From positions 1 through 44,132 of IMG/VR virus record IMGVR_UViG_3300029318_000016: DNA of 44,132 nucleotides, one strand, 5' to 3'. Positions 25,197 to 42,802 of this stretch are shown here, piece by piece (the first letter of the stretch is position 1; the number at the start of each line of letters is the position of its first letter). The notes beneath the pieces are model-generated. The model was not told where the DNA came from, searched no databases, and saw only the letters and a list, made by a program, of their open reading frames with translations. The translations under genes were made by a program, and so were the position numbers. This DNA is from a virus (lineage: Duplodnaviria; Caudoviricetes).

Positions 25197-28100
25197 TTAG
25201 TTTAGTGTTTCTGGAAGTGCACCTGTATCTCTAAGTCCTTCGTTCCTTCTTTGAATTGTTGGGAAGGTAGATAATCCAACATCAACTGTTTTTCCAGAAA
25301 CTCCAATGGCAATTGGAGAAGATGATCTAATAGAATTACCAGATAATCTACCCCAAGAGAATGTGCCAGTATTTCCATTAGCAGTTAGTCCAGTAACATC
25401 AGTTCCAGAATCAATATTGCAGGTAATAATTCCAACACTTCCGTTAGCAGATATTTGTCTAACATAATAAACATTATCTACAAATGTTGTTCCAATACCA
25501 ACTACGGCAGCATTTGAATCATCTACTGATGTTACTCCACTTCCAATTGTGGTATTTTTAATAAGTATTGGGAATCCAACATCTAAAGTATTAGAACCAC
25601 TATTGAATATATTTGGAGATACATCAAGTGTAAATTTAAGTGCTTTTGAATGGCCACTAGTAGGAGTGACTGCTTCAATTTCAGTCACATTTCCAGAGAA
25701 ACCTCTTATAGTTTCAATCTTATTCAAATTCTCAAAATTGGTATTGGGAAGTGGTACAATAGTTTTTGGTTCTACTGTATAACCAAATCCAGGATTTGTT
25801 ATTGTAGTTGCTGTAATTGCTCCGTTAGTAACAGTCGCTGTTGCAGTAGCAGTTGTTCCTACACCTACATTTTGTGGATCGTCGATTTGTAAAGGATTTT
25901 GGAATTTAATATTGACAGTAGATCCAACATATCCACTTCCAGAATTTCCTGGATCAATAGTAAGAGAAGAGACAGTTCCACCAGCACCGATTGTTGCAGT
26001 TATATTTGCCGGAGATGGATCTTCTTTACCATCAATAATTATACCTTCAAAGGTATAAGTTTTAGAAACATCATTTGATTCTTCATAACCAAAATTGCTT
26101 ATATCATCAACAAAAATTTCTGTATCAGAAGTCCCAACATCTTTAATAATTTTTGCGGTTGGATAAATTTGAGCAATTATAGATTGTCTCTTTTTAGAAA
26201 CAAATTCACCGTTAATTTGTCTATCAATTTTTTGTTTCGTCCAAGACATTGGTTTTAAATTTATCTCGTCAATTCCTTCATCAACATATAAACTAGTTTC
26301 AAATTTATCGGACGATGTTAAATCAAAGATTGTTCTCGAATCTTGCGTTTTTGTTTCAAGAATAGTATCATTTTTATAAATTCTAATAATGTCACCTTTT
26401 TCTAAAGTTGGAGGAACATTATTTACTTGAAGATCATCTTGTCCTCTTGTTCCTCTATAATAGAAAATATCAATTTTATCCTCTGGTTTGGGTGCAACAC
26501 TAAACGAGAATGATGTTCCACCATCAAATACATAAGATTCTCCAGGTTCTTGAAGAATTCCATTTAAAAATATTATTAATAAATTTTGTAGATCAAAAGA
26601 AGAGTCTTCAGGTTGCTGGAAACTTAATAATGATCCATTATAAAATAGTGGAAATACTACTCTAAATCCATCTTGGAAGTTCTTAACAGAATCAATATAA
26701 TCAAGTTCTCCAAATTGCCAAGAAGCAAAATTGTCATTAAATACTTCCAATACTGTCAGTTCAAATTCTGATAATGGAGATGTTAAACCTGCAGCAGTTA
26801 CAAGTCCAACAGGTTTAAATACATCACCTTTTCTGAATGAATATCCACTTCTCGCAATATTAAAATTATTCACAGAATGATATGTTGATCCAATACCTGT
26901 AGTCGAACTTGCTCCAACATTAATATTGAGCAATAATCCAATTCCAGTATCTGTTGTTGGACCCAATCCAACTCTAGACACACCAGTAACTTCAAGATTT
27001 TCATATGAAGGTTCAGAAACAAATATTTGTGTTTGATTAGAATAATTGGATCCACCATTAGTTATATTGAATGTCAATGTTCCTCCTGTTCCTACAGGTG
27101 AAGCAGTTATTACTGCACCGGAACCATTTCCAGTTGGATCAACAATAGAAACACCGATTGATACTATAGAATTATATCCTGATCCAAAGGTTCCACCTGT
27201 TATTCCTGTAGTAAGACCTGTTATAGTTCCACTACCATTAATGATAGCAGTAACAGCAGCACCGACAAGTGGTGCATATCCTTGACCACCAGTAGATCCA
27301 AGAGAGATAATGACTCCACCTCTGGGAAGTTGATTTTGATTTACATCAGATTCTGATATCAAAAGACTAGTAGGATCTGAATTGTCTGTTCTAATTCCAC
27401 TAAAAATAATAGAAGATGGTCCATCTACACGGGTAACGGTAAACACCACATCTGTGCTCGACCATGATGGACTAGTGACCGTAATTGTATCACCGACTTC
27501 ATATCCAGTACCTCCATCATTAATAGTTGGAGTAGCACCAATTGGATAAGAAGGTCCTAAACCAATAGTAACATCAAATTCAATATCAGTAGTGGATCCT
27601 CCAGCATTAGCGGTTACAGTATGGGTGCCACTGGAGCTGTTAGATGTATATCCACTGGTATATTCTAAAGTTAACACTGGTGAAGGTGGATATCCAACTG
27701 AGGTTGGATCAATGATTGAAAAATTATTTAATGGATTATTTTCAGTTGTTGGTGTTTGGAAGATGCCATTAATAAATACAACTCCATTTCCACCAGTTGT
27801 TCCAATTCCAGTGGTATTTGATCCACCAACAGTTATTGCAAAAGTTCTGCCAATTCCAGTAAACTCATCAGAAAAGTCATCAAAAATTTCATTCGTAGTA
27901 TAATCCTTTCTAAGGAATACTCTTCCAGTAAAATCTGAGGTTTCAAATTTTAAATTATTTTCAGTTCTAGTAATATTTGAATTTCCTCTGGGTGGATTTG
28001 TAAAGAAAATACTATCTCCAACAATATTGTAAGATCCTCTGTATATTCTTGTTGAAGTTGCATCAGTATGTGATGCTGCAGTTGATCCTACATGACCTCT

Positions 28101-31100
28101 TTCAACTTCAACTATTGTAGATGATCCTATACCGGTTATTGGTCCACTAGCAGTTGTTCCAAGACCAACATTAATAATCTTCATATATTCATCATCAATT
28201 TCTAGTATATCACCAGGTGATATTGTTGAAATTCCACTCAAGGCAAAAGTAGTATCCGTTGCAGAAATACCTCCATCATTTCCGGTCAATGTTTGAGAAA
28301 TTTTAGTAAAAGCAATTGGATATTGAGCAATATTATCAATAGTAATTAACGTTTTTTCGTTTCTCTTTGCCATTGCAAATTCATGAGCATTTCCACTACC
28401 CAAACCGGTAAAAGTTACAGCAGTTCCGGCTTTAGTTGTTGATATTGAGAAATTGTTGTTATTGTCAACAACCGCAAACACTTGCGTAGGGAGAGTTGTA
28501 AATACAGCAAGTGCAGAACTCTTATAAGTCATTGGAGAAGCAGAAACTCCATCAAATGTCGATTTTGGAGTGTACACTAATTCTTCTCCATCACTGAAAA
28601 AGTGATTATTAATTGAGAACTTTCCAGTAGAGGCATTAAGAACTGCAGTATCTGCAGGATTGAATTTTTTAGCAAAAATTGGAGTTTTGTCTGAAGTTAA
28701 CACAAAATTATCTTGATTAATGCGGTCTCCATTTATTGCCAGATAACGACCAGTATTGACAGTTTCAATCGATGTACCATATGAAAGATCTGGAGCCTGA
28801 TTTAAAATATCCACATCAGAGTATAAGCATTCACTAAATGATTTTATTTCTAAATCACCACTAAAATTAGAATCTGGATAAAATTTTAGTAATACATTAT
28901 TTCCATCATATTCTCCACCAAATGTTCCAATACCAATTGCAGTATCAAATGTTCCAATACCAGATGCTGAAAGGAATGCTGATTGCTGTATGTAAATGTC
29001 AGTTCCATCTTGAACCATCATTATCTGTTGAACTGATTTAGTAGTTCCAATTCCAACTTCAACTAAAGATTTGGAAGCATCAAATAAATTTTTATCCAAA
29101 CTTAAGAATGAAGTAGATACTCCAGAAGTTGTTGTAGAAAAACCTGCTTCATAAATTGCAGATCTTTCATTACCTTCAGGTTGGTCTGGTAAAATATATC
29201 TAAAAGTTCCAACACCAACAGCAGTTGTTCCAAATCCAACAATTCTTGTTTTTGCAATTACATTTTCATTAGACTCATTCTTATAAGTCAAATTAACTAC
29301 ACCAGAGTCCATATAGGCATCAAAAGATCCTAATGAATTTAATGATCTAGAAAAATCTTCAGTATCGAAGTAGAATTCTGCAGTGAATATATCGTTTCCA
29401 TTGTGTGTTAAATATACCTCAACAAAATTAGACTCTCTGGATAATTTTTTATATACTTGTGCATTTATATGCAATGATTCAAATTTATCAGTAGCAAAAC
29501 CAATAACAATACTTGAAGTTCCTGCAGAAACTTCTTGACTACGAGATGTTAAATCAATAAATCCGATAGATGTTGTTCCAACACCAACTAATTGATTATC
29601 AAACTTTTTATCAATATATTTAATATCATACTCTGTATCATATGGATCTTTAGGAGTAAATCTAACATAAGTGTCTCCAAATTCATCATCTTCTAGTGAA
29701 AAATCTCCATACTGTTCTCCGTCAATTGTAGTTAATCCAGATCCTACATTAACTAATGATTGTTTTTCTAAAATACCAATATTTCCACTTATGAGATCCT
29801 TTGCATAAATTAAACTTGTTAATTGAACTTGATTTTTTCCACTAACATCAGATACTTTGAAAAGATAATTATTATAAGATGATGAGTTATCAATTTTAAT
29901 TAAATCTTTAAATTCTGAAGGATCATCTGCAGAACTAGAGAATTGATCTTGAATATTATCAATTTTCAGAACGATATTTGATTTTGATTCATTATAATTT
30001 GTTAAATTTTTATTTTTTAATTTTACAAATTTAGACTTGTTATTGATAGGATCTAGATCAACATCTTTTACCAAATCAAAGATGTTAATAGTATCAACTC
30101 TGTTTTCCGAAATACAATCTTTAATTATTGTAGTTGTATCGGAAGTAGTTTTAATTCCAATTTTTTCATTTTCATCAGACATTACTACAGTGTCTGAGAA
30201 GTTTTTGATTCCTGTTGAGTGGACTAAACTGTTAACAGGTGTTCTAATATCTTTCCACTGTTGCTTGCTATTGATAGAATATGATAAATTTTGATAATAA
30301 TCATTATCAGCAAGAACTTGATAATCTTCACTTAATTTTCCAGTTTCTTTTTCCCAACCTTCATCTTTTCTATTTGAAAACTTAGTTTCATAGAATCCAT
30401 CATATTTTTCTATAGATCTTATAGTGGCAACATTTCCGGAAATTTTCCCTTCAATTCTTTCATTGGCAGAAAGATCATAAGAACCAAACACTTTTAAATT
30501 TCCAGATTTGTCACTTGCAATAACTTCCAAATCTATTTCTTGATCATTACTTAGTAATTTTTCCCCCAATTCAAAAATTGATGGTGCTAATGATATTGAA
30601 AATGTAGGGTAATTATTTTTAGATATAATGTTTCCAAAAGAATCTTGAACTGTTTTGGCAATTCCTGTATTTGTTCCCAATCCAGAAATACTAATAGTTA
30701 CTTCATCGTCATTAATTGGTGGATTGAGAGTTTGATCTGTTTTATTTTTATAATTAGTTACCTCAAAGAATTTGTATCCATAATCACTAGAATTAAATCC
30801 ATCACCATCTGTTCCGAATTTTTGAATACCCTCAATAAAAACTTGTTCCCCTACCTCAAAAGTATCTGTAGAAAATCCTATCGATGGTGTAGTTAAAATA
30901 CATGTAAAAATACCAGTATTAGATGATTGAACTTGTTTGATACTAATCCCATTTGTATTATTAATGGTAAAAAGTTCTGCAGATTGATCAGATATACCTT
31001 TTGGAGAAGCATCAATTTTCAATTCCACAATTGAATTTCCTGCTAATGTTGGAATTATTGATCCATTATCTAACAACTCTCTAGTGTCATTATTGACAAC

Positions 31101-34100
31101 TATTATTTGAGGTGCGGAGACATATCCAGATCCACCAGAAACTATTGTTGCAATTCCAATTGTATTGGAGTCCTTTAATACAATTTTTGGTGATATGAAA
31201 GCTTCTGGTTGTAAGGTTTTATCTGAAGAATATTCAAATCCTTCATTAATAATCCTAGTACTTTTAATTATTCCAATATCATTGGAATTTAAAGAAACTA
31301 ATAAATTTTCTCCATTTGCTGAAGTTATACTTGAAATTGAAGGTAATTTCTTATATCCAGAACCTCCAGATAATAAATGTATTTTATTTGCAGGTCCAGA
31401 TGCAGTTAACGAAGTAGTAGTATATTCCAAATTGTCGCATTCTGTAGATGCATATGACAATCTCTCAGGAGACTTCTGTAAAGAAATTTGAAATGTTGAC
31501 ACTCCTAAGTTAGAAATGGTATAATTTTGATTATATAAACTATCTACGAATAAAATTTCGGAATAATTATTTACATCCGTATCAGAAGAACTAATAAATC
31601 CTGATTTTTCTAAAGAGTAATAAAGTTTTCTTGGTAGTTCGGGACTATTTTTTATTGTAAACGTTGCATTAGAAGATCCTATTGTTCCAGAACTTTCTAG
31701 ATTAAAGACATCTGTAGATCCGGTAGACACAAATTCATTATTAAAATCTTGATCATAATAAACTTTAAACTCGTATCCAGATAAAGAAGAGTCTGACAAA
31801 TCAAATAGTAAATTATTATTTTTTACAGATTCTATTCTAGGATTAATTTTAGAAATATTTTGAGATGATCCTCCGGTGGATGCAAAACTTACAACTATTG
31901 GCGGATTACTTGTAGAATTAATTAATGTCTCACTTAACTTAATAATATCTGAATTAACTTTATAAACATAATATGAACCTGTTTGTAGACCAGAAATAGT
32001 TTCAGAAGTTCCAGGTTCTGCATAATAATGTACTTTATCTCCAGTATTTAAATTATGAGAAGTAATTGAAATTTGATCTGTGGACGAATTTACTGCTGAA
32101 GAACTAAATCCTATAGGATCAATTTCAAGATTTCCTGTTAGAGAATTTCTACTTACTTTTACACTAGTAGAAGTTCCAATACCAACAGAGAGATTTGGTT
32201 TTACGTTTAATGAAATTTGATCTCCGGCAGTTAATCCATGTGCCGTTGATATAGAGATAGTAGATATAATTTTTTCAACTTTTGCAGTCTGCTGGTCAAA
32301 ATTACTTTCAAGATAATATTCATCGTTATCATCACCATTAGTTACGAAGTAAATTTCATCAGATGTTATAATAGTTTTTATTCCTATGGTATTTGGTGAC
32401 TTATTTACAGCAAAAACAGTTGCTGGTAAATCATATGTTTGCCCAGATGGTGTGTCTGAGATAAGAATATTTCCATTTCCATTTGTCTCAAATGTAAGTT
32501 GTTGATTAGTCTGGAAAGGATGATTCAAAAGACTAATCCTTTGCATAGGTATAGATTCCTCAATTAATTCATTTCCAAAACTAAATGACGTTGAATACCC
32601 AACTCCTGCTGTTGTACCAAGTCCAACGGACTCTTTTGGATTGAAATAAATTCTATCGTTAGATTTTGAATCAAAATAATCAAGTTTTTTATCTATTGTA
32701 AATGTTCTTGATTTGAAAGATACTGATGTCCCGGCATTATGTGCAATTCCAGAATCACCTCTCTTAACTCTCAAAACATTCTTATTTTGATATACATTTA
32801 ATATTTCTAAAGTTTCTGTTCCAATACCAATACTGCTGCCAACTGAAACTCCGGGTGGTATTTGTGTTACATAAATTTCAGTTGTTCCTGCACCAGAGGA
32901 TGATACAATTTCTGTTGTCAATCCAGAATTTGGAATAGTTGGAACATTAATTTTAAAATAATTATTTAATTCAACCAGTTGAGAACTGCTAATTCCGGTA
33001 AATCCAGATATTGTAATATAATCATTATCGGATAATGTATGGAAAGGTGATATGGTTGCTGTTATTTTTCCATCATTTCTCCAAGTAAATAAAACATTAT
33101 CATAAACTTCATTGGAAGTATTAATATTATTAATAGTTTTACCTTTTATTGAAGATACTCTGGCAGAAATTCCTCCACCATTTGTATTGGTATTATCAAA
33201 AAGTAGTGCATCATTTACTTTATAATTATCTCCAGAATTGACAATTTCTACAGAAGAAATAGATCCTTCCTGAACAGATTCAACGGAAATTTTCTGCCTT
33301 TTAATTTCATTACTTTCAATAATAAAATCATTATCAGCATTTAACTCAGAGACTTTATATGGTAAAGTGTTTCTGGAAAGAGATGAATTATTGAAATCAA
33401 ATTCTTGATTTAAAGTTTTATTTTGTTTAATTGTATTTGATCTAAAAGAATTTCCAATGAAATATGGAAACTCTGGATTTCCATTGATATCAATTGTAGC
33501 GTGGTATGCATATACTCCATTTGGAAAATCTATTGTTTTTGCAAATCTTCCGTTATTTCTATCAAGATCTCCATTTTGATTATCATATTTGTAATCTTCA
33601 ACAAAAAATCCGAGAGGAAACTCTGTTACTGATGGTCTATCTGAAATGTTAGACGCACTCTTTGTGTATCCTGTTGTCATAGTTTTGATTCCAGGATTAG
33701 TGCCTGTAGGATCTACAGTTGCATAGGGACCATAAATTGGATTTCCATCATATGCCCATCCAATAATTCCAGACAAATCACTTCCATCATCATTGAAAGA
33801 TGATCTCAATACATCAAAATATCCTGATACTGAATATGAAAGTTCACCATCTTCATCACTTAATATTTCATTTTGCTGTGTAGGTAATTTTTCAACTTGA
33901 TTTACTGTAAGTGATCTTATAGATGCGTTTAAAATTGCACCAGTTCCAGATGGGATAATTTCAATACTACTTGAAGTAGAATATCCAATTCCAGCATTGA
34001 GAATCTTTACATCACTAATTTTTTCATTAGTAATTACAGCTCTTAGTTTGGCACCAGTGCCAGATCCTGTTGGATCAGAAACGATTAATTCTGGAACTGA

Positions 34101-37100
34101 AAAATATTCAAATCCTCCGAATTGAAGATTGACTTCATTTATAGATCCATTTACTATAACTGGTTCTAAACTAGCACTTCTTCCATTTTTAAAAGTAAAT
34201 GATGGTTTTTTCTCAACATTTAAAATATCTGATCCATACTTTGTTCCTTCTTCATAAAGATAAATTTGCTCAAGAGATCCCTTAATGATTGGTGTAGCAA
34301 CTATAGATTGAGATTGTGTTGTTGTTCCAAGTCCAACAGATGTAAATTCAACGGATACTTGTATATCAGGATACTTAAATTGATGCAAATCTGTTCCTAC
34401 AGATGTCAATTTTACAAATTTATCTTGCTCATAATTTGAAGAAATTGTTCCTCCAATACCAGCATCAGATAACCTAAAAGAATTATCATCATTTTTTAAG
34501 ATATAATATTGATTAGTTGTTGTTAGACCAGATATAGGTGTTCCTGTTGAAGAATATTCAATTATTTCACCATCAGAAAATCCATGATTAATAAAATTAA
34601 TTGTTCCATTAGATGTAGAAATTCCAGAAGGTTTTACTAAAAGTTTTCTGTTTGTGAATTTTCCACCATCTAAAACTTTTATTTCGGAGATTGTATTCTT
34701 TACATTTAAAGTTGCAAATTTCTGTATTCCGTTTAAAGATGAAGACTCAAAAGAAATTGTATTAATTCCAGATTGAAGATCTTCAAACGTATTGAATAAT
34801 TTAATAGTAGTATTATTATCTACTTTTGCAAAATAGTTAGAATTGTCGATTAATGTGGATACTCCCAATCCAATAGTAATACTACTATTTCCATTATTTT
34901 TATAAGTAATTTCTTCTCCATTAACAAAATTATGATCTGTTAAAAAGGTAATCTGTGGATCGGTACTAGTTGTGTTTATACCTCCACCATCAGTCGTTCT
35001 TCTTGCATCAAATGATACTTCCCTCCTTCTGGTATTAATTACAGGTTCAAATAATCCTCCAGATACATTTCCTCCAGTAACATTAATTGATAAAACTTCC
35101 TCAATATCAAAATTCTGATTATCAATAAAAATATCTTCAATAGTTCCAGTTACAACTGGTTGAACTAGTGCAGTTGTTCCAAGTCCCGCAGAAACTTCGA
35201 TAGATGGAGGACTTATAACATCAAATCCCGACCCAGCATTTAAAATATCAACTTTTTCAAGAGGTCCGAAGTAAATTTTATCAAATGTTTTATAATTTGA
35301 TATTTCGACACCATTAATCAACATTCCAATTTTTCCAGGATCTGTTATTTCATCAGTTCCATTTTTGATATTTGGATTTAATGCAAATTTCTTTAAAACT
35401 TTTTGTGGATTTATTGTTTCAGATTTTTGAGAAGATGAAATAAAAGTATGAGTTTCTAAAGTGGAAGTTGAAGATGCAAATTGAACACTGTTAGAATCTG
35501 AATCTAAAAATGATGCAGATGTAAAAAGTTTTATTTTTTTGGGGTTAGTGGATGAAACTTTTACATAGTATGATCCATTTAATAATCCCGTGAGAGGTGT
35601 GTTAGATGCCCTATATTCAATCTTTTCCCCATTTATGAAGGGAACATCAGTATCAAATAAGATAGAGGTATATAAACCTGTTGTGGTGTCTTGATCCTCA
35701 AGGCTTCCACCATTTGATGAAATTGATATTGAATTCAGTTTTTTGGTAATTTGATATGTATAAGAATTGTTAGATAATCCATTTCCCCAAGAAGGAATTG
35801 AATTTGATGCAACATACGCAAAATTGTCAGTATCAAAATAAACATTTTGAACATCGGAAATAATAGAATCATTTCCATATTTTAAATTGACAGTAGAACT
35901 ATTTGTCTTATGAATTTTTCTTCTTAACTTATAATTTCCATTAACATTTGGAATAAAAGAATTCAAATTCCCTATTGATATTGATTTTGATCCATAGTCA
36001 ATATCAGAATTAATAAAAGGTAGATCTGAAGTAGAAGTTGGGTAGATAACAGTATTATTGGAAATGTCAACAAATTCTACAAGATCTCCCTTTTTAAATT
36101 GAGATCTATCAAGAGTCGTATCAAAAGTGACTCCCGTGGAGTTAGTCAATTGACCATTAATGTTTGTCGCCCCAATAAATGATGAAATATTGACTGAAGA
36201 ACTAGTATTGTAAATCCAAGAATTTGCGAAAATTTCTTTATATGTTTTATTTTGTTCCGGATTTTTAACTAAGCTACCAACATTTTTAACTGTTATAATC
36301 TGACCTTCATCAACAGAAACAGATTTTGATCTTTGCACAAAGTTTGATAAAACTCCTGTCAATCTTAAAACAACCTTATTTTCTACGTTACCATTTTCAT
36401 ATGAAAAATAAGTATCATTAGAAAAAATATTATCAGTAACGGAAATAGTTGAATCAATTCCAGAGCACCCTAAAAATTGATTTACACTTTTTTCGGTATA
36501 AGTAATAATATTATTTCCAGAATATATTGTTCCAGTTTGCCCAAATCCAATAGTAGAGTCTACCGATATTACAGATGAACCTACACTTACATTTTCGAGA
36601 ACTTTTGAACTTGGAGTAATGGTAAAATTGCCCTTAACATTACTATTTTCAGCATATCCAACAAATAATCCCAATTTAAAATATTGTTTTTGATTTCTTG
36701 TAAATGCCTCAACAGAAGATATTGAAGCATTTGTTGCTTCATCAGTAGTCTTAATCAATGTTTGTCCAACTATTTTTGTTGGATCTCCACTTATTACTTC
36801 AGCTACACATACTTCTCTTCTAATAAATTCGGCATCTGAAGGTTTGATTAAGTAATCTTCAAGATTAATTAATCTAGGAGTTTCTCCATACAGTACATTG
36901 AACAAGATTCTAAATGAGTCATCTGTTCCTTTTGATTCATAAAAAGATCTAGATTCTTTTATAAAGTTTCCGACATTTATTTTTGAATCAAAAACTCGAT
37001 CTTCAAATCCTGGAGTATATGTAAATTTAATTTTTTTATAAAATTCACTTAAGAATAAAGAACTCAAATTTTGAACATTTGATTCCGATTTATGAGAAGA

Positions 37101-37541
37101 TGCTGTTGTTGTAGAAAATACTAGTTCTTCTTCATTTAAATCTTGATGATAACTAGTAATACCACTAAATCCGCGAACGCATCCAATAAAAGTATTTGCA
37201 GTAAGTCCAGTATATGTAATGACTTCATTATCAATTTTTAATAGTCCATATTGATTTGGAAATCCCTTTGTGCTAGAAACTGAGATAGTATCACTAGTTG
37301 CAGTAATATCTCCGGATAAAGTTGTTGATCCCACAATAACTTCTGGTGTGAGATTGTCCAACTTCAGATATTGATCTAGATTTTCTGCAACGTCAACTGG
37401 ACCTCCCTGATATTCTTGAGAGATATAATATTGCTTCAGAAAATCTAATGTCTTAGGACTTTCGTCCAAGACATACTCTGGCAATTGATTTGAAATTATA
37501 TCCTGAATCTTGACTCTAGATTCAATTCCAGTTTGTATCAT
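25197..37541 (-). CDS. gp7: Giant baseplate wedge initiator gp7-like protein (4114 aa)
   Basis: Lies between gp6 and gp8; QLPEY...FLKQYY, FYESKGT..SFRILF, DNDYYQNLSYSI, VHSTG motifs; IIGWAYDGNPIYGPY (YHYH-like) segment; many GSGY/NHGF repeats. Confidence 0.85.
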   Translation of the reverse strand: MIQTGIESRVKIQDIISNQLPEYVLDESPKTLDFLKQYYISQEYQGGPVDVAENLDQYLKLDNLTPEVIVGSTTLSGDITATSDTISVSSTKGFPNQYGLLKIDNEVITYTGLTANTFIGCVRGFSGITSYHQDLNEEELVFSTTTASSHKSESNVQNLSSLFLSEFYKKIKFTYTPGFEDRVFDSKINVGNFIKESRSFYESKGTDDSFRILFNVLYGETPRLINLEDYLIKPSDAEFIRREVCVAEVISGDPTKIVGQTLIKTTDEATNASISSVEAFTRNQKQYFKLGLFVGYAENSNVKGNFTITPSSKVLENVSVGSSVISVDSTIGFGQTGTIYSGNNIITYTEKSVNQFLGCSGIDSTISVTDNIFSNDTYFSYENGNVENKVVLRLTGVLSNFVQRSKSVSVDEGQIITVKNVGSLVKNPEQNKTYKEIFANSWIYNTSSSVNISSFIGATNINGQLTNSTGVTFDTTLDRSQFKKGDLVEFVDISNNTVIYPTSTSDLPFINSDIDYGSKSISIGNLNSFIPNVNGNYKLRRKIHKTNSSTVNLKYGNDSIISDVQNVYFDTDNFAYVASNSIPSWGNGLSNNSYTYQITKKLNSISISSNGGSLEDQDTTTGLYTSILFDTDVPFINGEKIEYRASNTPLTGLLNGSYYVKVSSTNPKKIKLFTSASFLDSDSNSVQFASSTSTLETHTFISSSQKSETINPQKVLKKFALNPNIKNGTDEITDPGKIGMLINGVEISNYKTFDKIYFGPLEKVDILNAGSGFDVISPPSIEVSAGLGTTALVQPVVTGTIEDIFIDNQNFDIEEVLSINVTGGNVSGGLFEPVINTRRREVSFDARRTTDGGGINTTSTDPQITFLTDHNFVNGEEITYKNNGNSSITIGLGVSTLIDNSNYFAKVDNNTTIKLFNTFEDLQSGINTISFESSSLNGIQKFATLNVKNTISEIKVLDGGKFTNRKLLVKPSGISTSNGTINFINHGFSDGEIIEYSSTGTPISGLTTTNQYYILKNDDNSFRLSDAGIGGTISSNYEQDKFVKLTSVGTDLHQFKYPDIQVSVEFTSVGLGTTTQSQSIVATPIIKGSLEQIYLYEEGTKYGSDILNVEKKPSFTFKNGRSASLEPVIVNGSINEVNLQFGGFEYFSVPELIVSDPTGSGTGAKLRAVITNEKISDVKILNAGIGYSTSSSIEIIPSGTGAILNASIRSLTVNQVEKLPTQQNEILSDEDGELSYSVSGYFDVLRSSFNDDGSDLSGIIGWAYDGNPIYGPYATVDPTGTNPGIKTMTTGYTKSASNISDRPSVTEFPLGFFVEDYKYDNQNGDLDRNNGRFAKTIDFPNGVYAYHATIDINGNPEFPYFIGNSFRSNTIKQNKTLNQEFDFNNSSLSRNTLPYKVSELNADNDFIIESNEIKRQKISVESVQEGSISSVEIVNSGDNYKVNDALLFDNTNTNGGGISARVSSIKGKTINNINTSNEVYDNVLFTWRNDGKITATISPFHTLSDNDYITISGFTGISSSQLVELNNYFKINVPTIPNSGLTTEIVSSSGAGTTEIYVTQIPPGVSVGSSIGIGTETLEILNVYQNKNVLRVKRGDSGIAHNAGTSVSFKSRTFTIDKKLDYFDSKSNDRIYFNPKESVGLGTTAGVGYSTSFSFGNELIEESIPMQRISLLNHPFQTNQQLTFETNGNGNILISDTPSGQTYDLPATVFAVNKSPNTIGIKTIITSDEIYFVTNGDDNDEYYLESNFDQQTAKVEKIISTISISTAHGLTAGDQISLNVKPNLSVGIGTSTSVKVSRNSLTGNLEIDPIGFSSSAVNSSTDQISITSHNLNTGDKVHYYAEPGTSETISGLQTGSYYVYKVNSDIIKLSETLINSTSNPPIVVSFASTGGSSQNISKINPRIESVKNNNLLFDLSDSSLSGYEFKVYYDQDFNNEFVSTGSTDVFNLESSGTIGSSNATFTIKNSPELPRKLYYSLEKSGFISSSDTDVNNYSEILFVDSLYNQNYTISNLGVSTFQISLQKSPERLSYASTECDNLEYTTTSLTASGPANKIHLLSGGSGYKKLPSISSITSANGENLLVSLNSNDIGIIKSTRIINEGFEYSSDKTLQPEAFISPKIVLKDSNTIGIATIVSGGSGYVSAPQIIVVNNDTRELLDNGSIIPTLAGNSIVELKIDASPKGISDQSAELFTINNTNGISIKQVQSSNTGIFTCILTTPSIGFSTDTFEVGEQVFIEGIQKFGTDGDGFNSSDYGYKFFEVTNYKNKTDQTLNPPINDDEVTISISGLGTNTGIAKTVQDSFGNIISKNNYPTFSISLAPSIFELGEKLLSNDQEIDLEVIASDKSGNLKVFGSYDLSANERIEGKISGNVATIRSIEKYDGFYETKFSNRKDEGWEKETGKLSEDYQVLADNDYYQNLSYSINSKQQWKDIRTPVNSLVHSTGIKNFSDTVVMSDENEKIGIKTTSDTTTIIKDCISENRVDTINIFDLVKDVDLDPINNKSKFVKLKNKNLTNYNESKSNIVLKIDNIQDQFSSSADDPSEFKDLIKIDNSSSYNNYLFKVSDVSGKNQVQLTSLIYAKDLISGNIGILEKQSLVNVGSGLTTIDGEQYGDFSLEDDEFGDTYVRFTPKDPYDTEYDIKYIDKKFDNQLVGVGTTSIGFIDLTSRSQEVSAGTSSIVIGFATDKFESLHINAQVYKKLSRESNFVEVYLTHNGNDIFTAEFYFDTEDFSRSLNSLGSFDAYMDSGVVNLTYKNESNENVIAKTRIVGFGTTAVGVGTFRYILPDQPEGNERSAIYEAGFSTTTSGVSTSFLSLDKNLFDASKSLVEVGIGTTKSVQQIMMVQDGTDIYIQQSAFLSASGIGTFDTAIGIGTFGGEYDGNNVLLKFYPDSNFSGDLEIKSFSECLYSDVDILNQAPDLSYGTSIETVNTGRYLAINGDRINQDNFVLTSDKTPIFAKKFNPADTAVLNASTGKFSINNHFFSDGEELVYTPKSTFDGVSASPMTYKSSALAVFTTLPTQVFAVVDNNNNFSISTTKAGTAVTFTGLGSGNAHEFAMAKRNEKTLITIDNIAQYPIAFTKISQTLTGNDGGISATDTTFALSGISTISPGDILEIDDEYMKIINVGLGTTASGPITGIGSSTIVEVERGHVGSTAASHTDATSTRIYRGSYNIVGDSIFFTNPPRGNSNITRTENNLKFETSDFTGRVFLRKDYTTNEIFDDFSDEFTGIGRTFAITVGGSNTTGIGTTGGNGVVFINGIFQTPTTENNPLNNFSIIDPTSVGYPPSPVLTLEYTSGYTSNSSSGTHTVTANAGGSTTDIEFDVTIGLGPSYPIGATPTINDGGTGYEVGDTITVTSPSWSSTDVVFTVTRVDGPSSIIFSGIRTDNSDPTSLLISESDVNQNQLPRGGVIISLGSTGGQGYAPLVGAAVTAIINGSGTITGLTTGITGGTFGSGYNSIVSIGVSIVDPTGNGSGAVITASPVGTGGTLTFNITNGGSNYSNQTQIFVSEPSYENLEVTGVSRVGLGPTTDTGIGLLLNINVGASSTTGIGSTYHSVNNFNIARSGYSFRKGDVFKPVGLVTAAGLTSPLSEFELTVLEVFNDNFASWQFGELDYIDSVKNFQDGFRVVFPLFYNGSLLSFQQPEDSSFDLQNLLIIFLNGILQEPGESYVFDGGTSFSFSVAPKPEDKIDIFYYRGTRGQDDLQVNNVPPTLEKGDIIRIYKNDTILETKTQDSRTIFDLTSSDKFETSLYVDEGIDEINLKPMSWTKQKIDRQINGEFVSKKRQSIIAQIYPTAKIIKDVGTSDTEIFVDDISNFGYEESNDVSKTYTFEGIIIDGKEDPSPANITATIGAGGTVSSLTIDPGNSGSGYVGSTVNIKFQNPLQIDDPQNVGVGTTATATATVTNGAITATTITNPGFGYTVEPKTIVPLPNTNFENLNKIETIRGFSGNVTEIEAVTPTSGHSKALKFTLDVSPNIFNSGSNTLDVGFPILIKNTTIGSGVTSVDDSNAAVVGIGTTFVDNVYYVRQISANGSVGIITCNIDSGTDVTGLTANGNTGTFSWGRLSGNSIRSSSPIAIGVSGKTVDVGLSTFPTIQRRNEGLRDTGALPETLN

Positions 37542-39896: not shown

Positions 39897-39904
39897 TATT
39901 TATA
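39897..39904 (-). promoter_or_regulatory. Late promoter TATAAATA heading the baseplate genes
   Basis: Exact consensus 23 nt upstream of the gp25 ATG. Confidence 0.85.
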
Positions 39905-40105: not shown

Positions 40106-40582
40106 TTATTTACATTTATTATTTATTTCTTGTTTTATAATATTATAATCTTCTTCAAGAACTTCTTTTAGATAATTTTCATCATAATTATCATAATAAT
40201 TTGTTTTTGCAAGTTTTTTTCTTGCTTCTAAAAGGTCTTTTCTTGGTTGAGCAAGAACTAAATTATATTTTCCGTTATTTGACTGGACACTATTAATAAA
40301 AGTGCCTTCATTTTTGGCATCAGAAAGAAATTTATAGTCCAAATATTGTAAATTGTAGTTATCCACTGCATTATAGAGAAAATCACTATCATGATGATCT
40401 TCTACAATGTAAATTACAACATCATAATCGGGAATTGGAACAATTTTATCCAAATTCCTCTCTAAAATTAGAAAATTAGCAGTAGAGGCAAAGGGACATA
40501 GTGAAAAATTCCCTAATTCTGGTCTAATTTTAGATAAATTGCGGATCCATTTCCGAACATGCTTAATTTTCTTGTCTCTCAT
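40106..40582 (-). CDS. Hypothetical protein with W...LCPFA motif (DUF1415-like)
   Basis: Likely start ATG 40582 (MRDKKIKHVRKWI...); VRKWI...NFSLCPFA and L..Q....L..AR..L...YY resemble DUF1415-type proteins. Confidence 0.6.
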   Translation of the reverse strand: MRDKKIKHVRKWIRNLSKIRPELGNFSLCPFASTANFLILERNLDKIVPIPDYDVVIYIVEDHHDSDFLYNAVDNYNLQYLDYKFLSDAKNEGTFINSVQSNNGKYNLVLAQPRKDLLEARKKLAKTNYYDNYDENYLKEVLEEDYNIIKQEINNKCK

Positions 40583-41219
40583 CGGGTGTTGTCCAGAAAT
40601 AATCATCACAATCACCCAATCTACCCCAATTAACATCATTTTCAGTTTGAAAGATGCGAGTTGACACCTTAAAGTCAGGTGTTTTGACCGGATCAGGGGT
40701 CATAGAGGTATCATAGATGCGACATCTATTGTTTGGATATAAACAAAACTGTCCATTTCTTAATTCAATTAAATTAAATGACTTATGTTCATCGGGCAAT
40801 TCACTTGTCGATGCATCAATCTGGTCAAAATCCCCATGATAGTTGTCTAATGTACATATATAATTTCCTTTGATATTACCGAAGTGCCTTGTTCTTACTT
40901 CCCATTCCATTGGAGCAACAAATTGCTTTAAGATTACAGTGAAATCATAATCCATACAATTCCAAAACTGAAGATTGACTAGATCCATATCAGGATCCGG
41001 TTTCTTTGGTTTTGATACAAATGCGGATATAGGCAGTTTATCAAACATAGCACCATATTCGGGTAGATAAGTTTCAAAGTAGAAGGCACGACCCTGAATA
41101 GACTTAGCAGATACCCATATACCTTCAACAAATTCTCCGTGACCATCCTTAAAATCACGAAGATATTCTTTTCTAACCCATACCTTTTTAGTTGGTAGGT
41201 TTGCAATTAATTTTGCCAT
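40563..41219 (-). CDS. Conserved hypothetical phage protein (218 aa)
   Basis: ANLP...VWVRKEYL, LPISAF, QFWNC, TLD, EHKSFN, GQFCLYPNNR motifs, recalled from marine T4-like phages; function unknown. Confidence 0.8.
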   Translation of the reverse strand: MAKLIANLPTKKVWVRKEYLRDFKDGHGEFVEGIWVSAKSIQGRAFYFETYLPEYGAMFDKLPISAFVSKPKKPDPDMDLVNLQFWNCMDYDFTVILKQFVAPMEWEVRTRHFGNIKGNYICTLDNYHGDFDQIDASTSELPDEHKSFNLIELRNGQFCLYPNNRCRIYDTSMTPDPVKTPDFKVSTRIFQTENDVNWGRLGDCDDYFWTTPDERQEN

Positions 41220-41653
41220 TCTTTAAAAAATTCTGATACTTCATAACCATCTAATTCTGATTTGTAATCAGAATCTTCTCCCAGATAAAAATATTCATAT
41301 CCAAGTTTCTTATATATTGCACATTCATTCTTAATAGATTTCTTACCAATATACAGTTTGGGGTTCTCATAATCCCAGGCAAACTGATCGGCATAGACGG
41401 AGTTAAGACTATCAAAACGATAAACTAAAGAAAATGCTACAAGTTTATCAGCATCATAATATCCGACAATATCACAATTCTTTTGTTCGAATTCTTCTCT
41501 AAAGATTGGTATCACACTATCAAAGTCTTTGTATTCACAATACTTGCGGTAAATCTCAAAACACTCATCATAAAAAGAACTATCAAGAAGTTTGTAATTA
41601 GAAACCTCCTGATAGTTTGTGTCTTTTAGTCTAATGCGACAATACATATACAA
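41207..41653 (-). CDS. Minimal ATE/Bpt-like aminoacyl-tRNA transferase (GNAT-like, ATE_C-like)
   Basis: CRIRL; ECFEIYRKY; YYDADKLVAFS; SVY; IG..SI..E; GYEYFYLG; DYK. Motif order follows the ATE1/Bpt C-terminal domain. Confidence 0.65.
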   Translation of the reverse strand: MYMYCRIRLKDTNYQEVSNYKLLDSSFYDECFEIYRKYCEYKDFDSVIPIFREEFEQKNCDIVGYYDADKLVAFSLVYRFDSLNSVYADQFAWDYENPKLYIGKKSIKNECAIYKKLGYEYFYLGEDSDYKSELDGYEVSEFFKEWQN

Positions 41654-41831: not shown

Positions 41832-41993
41832 TTAAATTTCAATGATTTTTGTTTCTAGATCTTGTGATCTTGGAAAACCTTTCTGATAGAAGTCCATCGA
41901 AAGGTCCTCCATGGTATCAAAGTATTCGTCCTGCGTCAAGTTTTCATACAGAACTTCTCCTTTGTGGAGAATTGTATACCTTGTCTGACTCAT
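41832..41993 (-). CDS. 53-aa acidic hypothetical protein (not in ORF track)
   Basis: MSQTRYTILHKGEVLYENLTQDEYFDTMEDLSMDFYQKGFPRSQDLETKIIEI*; TGATG coupling to the glycosyltransferase. Confidence 0.8.
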   Translation of the reverse strand: MSQTRYTILHKGEVLYENLTQDEYFDTMEDLSMDFYQKGFPRSQDLETKIIEI

Positions 41994-42751
41994 CAGATAA
42001 CTCTTGTCTTCTCGTGACCGACTCTAATACGAGGATCGCACCAGATTTCAAAACCTGCTTCGATAGCATCGAGACAGAATGATACATCTTCTCCACACAT
42101 ATCCTGAACCTCTCCAGATTCAAAGACCTGCATCTTTGGTGCAAACCATGGATACTTCATATCAGAGTGCTCAAAGACTCCATACTTAATCAGTAACCAT
42201 CCGAAACCTGCATAATCTACGGTAAATGGTTTGCGACGCTTTGAGATACTCTCTCCGGTCTCATGATTCATCACACCACCATTATTACGGAAGTCATCTT
42301 CTTCCATCCAGTGTGCAACACTTGTTGTTTTGCCGTCTTCCGTCATGTACCATCCACTGGCAATGTCTTGATCCATCAGAACTAATTGCCAGAACTTTTC
42401 GGTATTAAAAACAATATCACTATCAATCCATAATTGATAATCATAATGCAACTTGCCGTCCCATGGAATCTGATCCGGTCCTCGCAGCACATTCGCACCA
42501 AGGCACTTGCATCTTGCAAAGTTCACCATTGATGAATAATCTTGCGAGATTTGAATGCTTGCTCCTGCCTGCACCAAATCAAAACAAAGTTGCACAAAAT
42601 TTTTGAGGTATGTATAAGAAACTCCTCTACCAGGCAAACAAAAGACAATGGTCTTGCCTTTCACCAGTTCTTTTGCCTTTTCATAGTCCCATTCTTGAGT
42701 GTTCTCGGTCGGTTTGGGTGTCTTTGCTTTAACAGTAAATCCTTTAGCCAT
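41993..42751 (-). CDS. GT-A fold (GT2-like) glycosyltransferase
   Basis: VNFARC, LWIDSDIVF (DxD), GFGWLLIK, GEDVSFC, IWCDPRIRVGHEK. Confidence 0.8.
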   Translation of the reverse strand: MAKGFTVKAKTPKPTENTQEWDYEKAKELVKGKTIVFCLPGRGVSYTYLKNFVQLCFDLVQAGASIQISQDYSSMVNFARCKCLGANVLRGPDQIPWDGKLHYDYQLWIDSDIVFNTEKFWQLVLMDQDIASGWYMTEDGKTTSVAHWMEEDDFRNNGGVMNHETGESISKRRKPFTVDYAGFGWLLIKYGVFEHSDMKYPWFAPKMQVFESGEVQDMCGEDVSFCLDAIEAGFEIWCDPRIRVGHEKTRVI

Positions 42752-42773: not shown

Positions 42774-42802
42774 ATCATAACACTCTATCTATGCTCCGTC
42801 AA
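42774..42802 (-). promoter_or_regulatory. Host sigma70-type promoter with extended -10
   Basis: Minus strand TTGACG-17 nt-TATGAT with TGn before the -10; 23 nt upstream of the glycosyltransferase ATG. Confidence 0.75.

Follow-up and report, generated by a model that had tools for sequence, protein, structure and literature searches.

A short Ate1-like gene and a DUF1415-like partner in a marine T4-like phage: a candidate system for tRNA-dependent arginine transfer

Results

The mini-Ate1 gene and its family

We analysed a 44,132-nt fragment (IMG/VR record IMGVR_UViG_3300029318_000016, 20% complete; hereafter, the window) of an uncultured marine T4-like myophage, most of which is taken up by portal, tail tube, sheath, terminase and baseplate genes. 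Just two genes are the subject of this report, both in a short block that lies upstream of gp25/gp6: a very small relative of the arginyltransferase Ate1, which we call mini-Ate1, and a DUF1415-like gene, which we call its partner. Because isolate matches to the neighbouring genes were mostly to Synechococcus and Prochlorococcus phages, the host is likely to be a cyanobacterium. The features of the two genes, in window coordinates, are as follows.

41207..41647, minus strand: mini-Ate1 gene, 146 amino acids (aa), a single ATE_C-type GNAT domain with one extra strand before it (homology, model, dN/dS)
41261..41266, minus strand: Tyr128-Lys129, putative equivalents of catalytic klAte1 Y303/K304 (conservation and alignment with YK in bacterial ATE-like proteins)
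41324..41326, minus strand: Glu108, equivalent of klAte1 E277, which binds the Arg side chain (conservation and direct KlAte1 alignment)
40106..40582, minus strand: partner gene, DUF1415-like, 158 aa from its likely start (longest open reading frame 40106-40639), a predicted remote YqcI/YcgG relative
40496-40498, minus strand: codon of the partner's invariant Cys29

A preliminary description of this DNA had claimed an open reading frame at 41207-41653 (minus strand) encoding an Ate1/Bpt-like aminoacyl-tRNA transferase. The frame is present and all the motifs quoted from it occur in the order given, although the start is likely to be ATG 41647, where the closest relatives begin. Relatives at E≤0.001 numbered 278, and of the 120 matches listed almost every one had 140-150 aa; the ratio of nonsynonymous to synonymous substitution (dN/dS) was ~0.05-0.09 against the 8 closest of 12 relatives tested, and the predicted model had a mean confidence (pLDDT) of 90.9. 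Pfam ATE_C matched mini-Ate1 with E=6.3e-5 and 24 bits, 1 below the cut-off of 25, and Ate1 proteins were the only PDB sequences matching at E<0.1. A hidden Markov model (HMM) built from 12 bacterial ATE-like proteins scored mini-Ate1 at 8.9 bits and the best shuffle at 6.8 (1000 shuffles; best among the 946 listed), and profile-profile comparison with those proteins gave a probability of 92.5% over 114 columns. Judged by these comparisons, the similarity to ATE_C exceeds chance. Foldseek also placed Ate1 first for the model, so that the homology and the aminoacyl-tRNA-transferase type of GNAT fold proposed earlier were borne out by Pfam, PDB sequences and Foldseek.

Donor-side and acceptor-side residues

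Residues were mapped from the KlAte1 mutagenesis paper (PMC9351520) and the tRNA complex paper (PMC10115844), and conservation was counted over 105 aligned sequences (104 rows were kept from the 120 listed homologues; fragments and a few near-duplicates were omitted). According to PMC9351520, klAte1 E277 binds the Arg side chain and is replaced by Gln in the Leu-donating Bpt, Y303/K304 are catalytic, and R80, Y25 and Y87 of K. lactis Ate1 recognise the acidic N-terminus. The mini-Ate1 counterpart of E277, E108, aligned directly to KlAte1 and was kept in 105/105 sequences, as were W91 (W260) and Y36 (Y173). Y128 was kept in 105/105 and K129 in 103/105; their correspondence to Y303/K304 was taken via bacterial ATE-like proteins, as the direct KlAte1 alignment stops just before the YK. 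This YK had been described as terminal; it is present but lies 17 residues before the C-terminus. The proposed replacement of a His by Lys was roughly correct: K40 is Lys in 99/105 sequences and His in 6/105, but the ungapped register places His178, which contacts the tRNA 3' end, one residue past it. The SVY motif exists but is off register with the Ate1 SVYFIW, which aligns to the phage ADQFAW, and its Ser and Tyr are not conserved (26/105 and 6/105).

The N-terminal half of Ate1 has been lost. Mini-Ate1 starts at the strand following the R80/Y25/Y87 region, so this pocket is gone. The Cys4 metal site is absent from mini-Ate1, and the Cys of the CRIRL motif, earlier taken as its remnant, does not behave as one: this position, Cys3, is Cys in 59/105 sequences and Ala in 41/105. 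The basic alpha3 helix, which binds the tRNA acceptor stem in Ate1, is also gone, being coil in the model with at most two Lys/Arg in 86/105; the net charge is acidic, and the position of Y289 is mostly Leu or Phe. We rejected a split gene with a separate ATE_N half, since ATE_N (PF04376) matched neither mini-Ate1 nor anything else in the 44-kb record, itself 20% complete. On this mapping mini-Ate1 keeps the donor-side chemistry and has lost the acceptor side.

The fold alone leaves the donor unfixed: in VIA, FemX, MprF and L-PGS came out on top for the model, tied with the acyl-CoA enzymes VipF and NMT. These ties, the missing basic helix, the acidic charge and the automatic Atlas name, N-acetyltransferase, would suit a donor other than tRNA, such as acyl-CoA, an acyl carrier or another activated acid. 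However, the Q/R-x-x-G-x-G/A pyrophosphate loop, the motif of acetyl-CoA GNATs, occurred in 0/105 aligned sequences. Moreover, residues that touch the tRNA end in Ate1 and FemX are kept and the sequence matches are only to Ate1. We consider a non-tRNA donor distinctly unlikely and a tRNA donor likely.

Two viral forms and their bacterial relatives

Searching 1.84 billion representatives with a profile yielded 193 matches at E≤0.001. Besides the short form represented by mini-Ate1 there is a long form of 225-260 aa, which carries additional N-terminal sequence and has a WWTG tail; it matched Pfam ATE_C at E≤0.01 in 38/42 cases and aligned along its full length with Cys-less Bacteroidota ATE-like proteins (99%, 175 columns). 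In a quick tree of 77 rows the short (33) and long (32) forms were sister groups, with support of 92 and 81, and together stood apart from 12 bacterial rows (SH-aLRT 100). The HMM rule tagged three sequences (L166-L168; such numbers denote our loci) as long, although both their length and their place in the tree make them short forms.

About 900 viral-metagenome stretches matched mini-Ate1 patterns, whereas neither form occurred in 50,697 isolate phage records; culture-based work may therefore have missed the gene. The short form was confirmed in only 3/185,579 prokaryote genomes, all contigs of metagenome-assembled genomes (MAGs) and one of them (L175) phage-like, and we rejected a cellular origin. 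The L175 contig (NZ_JBBAKG010000003.1), from a Haliscomenobacter MAG, carries portal-like and gp46-like genes beside the module and is probably viral DNA in the bin. Among Bacteroidota, ATE-like proteins L179-L189 and L192 lack the Cys metal cluster and keep the donor Glu and the YK; in some the C-terminus is much extended. A divergent 161-aa cyanophage subtype (L078:352-837, L080:588-1079, L081:1630-2115) has Tyr for an otherwise invariant Gln (ATYFAW). The partner is not near these three genes, which thus offer a natural test of partner dependence. No fused forms were seen in 7,995 candidates of 283-2000 aa, a weak negative, and a few matches of 232-276 aa with unrelated tails (P0137, P0140, P0265) were set aside as apparent one-off chimeras.

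These data bear on one of the functions originally proposed, that the protein adds Arg or Leu to host N-terminal Asp/Glu for degradation by ClpS/ClpP. Its closest characterised relatives do so, the catalytic residues are kept, and the sister long form shares those 175 columns with bacterial ATE-like proteins. Nevertheless, retention of the donor side with loss of the acceptor side argues against N-degron tagging: the R80/Y25/Y87 pocket and the Cys4 site belong to the missing N-terminal part, the basic tRNA helix is lacking, and in the long form, too, the GW motif is not followed by an Arg, the residue presumed equivalent to R80. E108 in turn points to Arg, and an Arg tag in bacteria would call for a further transferase to act ahead of ClpS. 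We regard an N-degron role as rather unlikely, and an acceptor other than N-terminal Asp/Glu as quite probable.

Linkage of the partner to the ATE-like gene

The partner type, a protein of 150-190 aa with W..PCP(Y/F)A and D-H motifs, was encoded close to the ATE-like gene in 148/168 loci, 69/79 of cyanophage type and 79/89 others. Of the remaining 20, 7 were cut off and 13 had no partner nearby, their contigs, all partial, carrying none. The partner lay upstream, downstream, convergent or one gene away, and occurred in 10/17 flanking-gene groups. When the search began from the partner, 86/86 loci (69 distinct partner sequences) held an ATE-like gene; among the 80 loci from one partner query the short form (59) and the long form (21) replaced each other and never occurred together.

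Two points temper this picture. The partner-first counts overstate independence, because the queries were ATE-adjacent copies and the phages are related. In addition, a third query, the partner copy of S-PM2, gave an ATE-like gene in 0/53 loci, 41 of them with at least 1.2 kb upstream. As the partner is near most ATE-like genes, the dependence is one-sided: the transferase usually has the partner, and the partner is often alone. A solitary DUF1415-like gene occurs in the cultured phages S-PM2, Syn1, B3, S-SCSM2R, HMO-2011 and CRP-810 (L170-L173, L309-L363), so that it could be studied in existing phages.

An alternative is that mini-Ate1 acts by itself as an aminoacyl-tRNA transferase, its target for decoration being a protein of phage or host or a part of the virion, and that the partner hitch-hikes in a variable island beside baseplate genes. 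Each gene does occur without the other, and the block adjoins gp25/gp6 or hub/tape-measure genes amid SET-like, SpeD, 2-oxoglutarate-iron (2OG-Fe) and radical S-adenosylmethionine (SAM) genes that vary. Yet the linkage survives changes of order and strand as well as replacement of the short form by the long at one locus, and across the 89 non-cyanophage loci the partner, present in 79, outnumbers every structural neighbour, the most frequent of which reaches 48. We judge this alternative unlikely, and functional coupling of mini-Ate1 to the partner fairly likely. A charged-tRNA deacylase or sink without an acceptor domain, reshaping host translation, would account for donor-side residues kept while the acceptor side is lost, and a host-type promoter match heads the block (see below); it leaves the links to the partner and to an amidinotransferase unexplained, and the long form, which keeps its N-terminal part, is interchangeable with the short. 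We rate it improbable. The partner, overlooked in the preliminary description, is the strongest clue from context.

Identity of the partner

The top fold match of the partner was AglA, a member of YqcI/YcgG; that the partner adopts the AglA sandwich fold is a tentative reading. In that family the invariant N-terminal Cys is the heme ligand in AglA; the partner's Cys29 was present in 70/70 copies and came into register with the YqcI Cys only via DUF1415. The best copy scored 22.5 bits against the DUF1415 profile (motifs CP(F/Y)A, HP and N-x-x-Y), below the cut-off of 26; hhalign varied with the choice of first row (87.6% and 44.8%), and DUF1415 was assigned to 17-18% of members of the partner's Atlas clusters. 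PF08892 matched neither the window copy nor 11 other copies, PDB sequence and NCBIfam searches yielded nothing useful, viral fold matches were unnamed proteins, and plasmids had no match for the partner or DUF6614. The window copy has Ala for the usual His of the D-H motif. Cellular DUF1415 proteins (L193-L222, with L208 and L218 dropped as wrong reading-frame picks) aligned weakly, in register, with YqcI/YcgG (L364-L389), and on this account DUF1415 may be a heme-thiolate family. That the partner is a guanidine N-hydroxylase is a tentative assignment, at somewhat less than even odds.

Other genes and signals of the block

The remaining features of the block and its surroundings are as follows.

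40563..41219, minus strand: phrog_3704, a 218-aa conserved cyanophage gene between mini-Ate1 and partner, overlapping the mini-Ate1 stop by 13 bases
41993..42751, minus strand: phrog_1574, a 252-aa glycosyltransferase-like gene heading the block
42774..42802, minus strand: sigma-70-like promoter match, 10/12 with an extended -10, directly upstream of the block (consensus match only)
39897..39904, minus strand: match to the T4 late-promoter motif, ahead of the baseplate gene gp25 and downstream of the block

Sigma-70-like sites numbered 18, with 14.6 expected by chance, and late-promoter matches 5, with 6.2 expected, all 5 on the coding strand. There were no tRNA genes in the window. Contigs from three metatranscriptome runs of one study covered parts of neighbouring genes and none covered mini-Ate1 or the partner, which weighs neither way. 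Isolate labels for phrog_3704 (ferredoxin, PurM, transcriptional regulator) look unreliable, as the gene is without a Pfam or NCBIfam match. We rejected it as a partner because it is confined to cyanophage-type loci and occurs in 114 isolate records, none matching mini-Ate1; it probably lies outside the module. An open reading frame of 4114 aa (25197-37541) comes after gp6, at the place that a large virion or baseplate protein occupies in isolates.

Two further genes join in non-cyanophage lineages: DUF6614 (55/168 ATE loci, 75/86 partner loci), of ~110 aa (L082-L145, L175:6426-6761) and with no match in isolate phages, and an amidinotransferase (14/168 and 8/86), which mostly abuts the ATE-like gene. 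SpeD (SAM decarboxylase) is frequently only a few genes away from the module (L081:2796-3137, many of L017-L077, L144-L161), and small SET-domain-like genes, assigned by eye from a motif and without an NCBIfam match, lie near the ATE-like gene in unrelated phages (L003:484-861, L079:8448-8855, L161:6747-7169); both were set aside as sporadic neighbours. Near one long-form gene is an arginase/agmatinase-like gene, also judged by eye (L156:7656-8549).

Discussion

We propose, with a probability of roughly 0.4, that mini-Ate1 works with its DUF1415-like partner and moves Arg from host Arg-tRNA to an amine, though not that of an acidic protein N-terminus. Y36, K40, W91 and Y128 would bind the 3' end of Arg-tRNA, E108 would hold the Arg side chain and K129 would stabilise the intermediate; once Arg had reached such an amine, the partner, a predicted cysteine-heme enzyme, would hydroxylate the new guanidino group. 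Arg, or else a different basic amino acid, is somewhat favoured as the residue transferred. As acceptor we would guess at an amine of a small molecule or a sugar, a polyamine or a virion glycan, given the amidinotransferase, SpeD and glycosyltransferase-like genes nearby; amidinotransferase fits since it, too, turns an amine into a guanidine. A broader and more doubtful idea is that two to four genes form a guanidine-chemistry module widespread among large aquatic phages, in which mini-Ate1, the amidinotransferase as a second route, and a YqcI/YcgG-like heme N-hydroxylase would act together. If so, it would represent argolaphos-like tailoring of a metabolite or a virion decoration and would assign a function to DUF1415, for which the partner is in any case a concrete lead. 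No other enzyme in the aminoacyl-tRNA transferase group would be as small as mini-Ate1, which would thereby reveal what Ate1 can do without; the phage would also be putting the host's charged tRNA to use away from the ribosome.

We found no report of a phage Ate1-like gene in the literature covered, including the portions available of PMC7824862 and PMC7779560, a search outside which most subscription papers fall; the accessible parts of PMC2922099, PMC13302981 and PMC13622209 held nothing specific on such a gene or the partner.

Compared with known systems, mini-Ate1 shares with Ate1 (KlAte1, 7wfx; ScAte1, 7tif) and bacterial Bpt the ATE_C GNAT domain, the equivalents of E277, W260, Y173, Y303 and K304 and the R-I strand before the domain. 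It is viral and has 146 aa, as against 503 for KlAte1 and ~240 for bacterial models, and unlike Ate1/Bpt it is without the Cys4 site, the R80/Y25/Y87 pocket, the basic alpha3 helix and, mostly, Y289. It would work like an Ate1/Fem-type transferase, yet falls outside Ate1/Bpt because three of their defining features are missing. The Cys-less Bacteroidota proteins show full-length homology to the phage long form, with no Cys cluster seen, but unlike the phage forms they keep the basic helix and often G-W-R. FemX, MprF/L-PGS and Sbb17 differ in having a second, acceptor-binding domain, and their sequence identity is 10-16%. The closest parallel to the proposed logic is the argolaphos pathway, in which tRNA-dependent GNAT ligases and AglA (YqcI/YcgG) ligate Arg to an amine and then N-hydroxylate it. 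That pathway belongs to an actinobacterial antibiotic cluster, its GNATs (342 and 356 aa) are of other Pfam/COG families, and the phage partner, at ~160 aa, differs from AglA in having no PF08892 match, with no phosphonate genes seen in the phage loci; what the two systems would share is the order of events, arginine ligation to an amine followed by N-hydroxylation.
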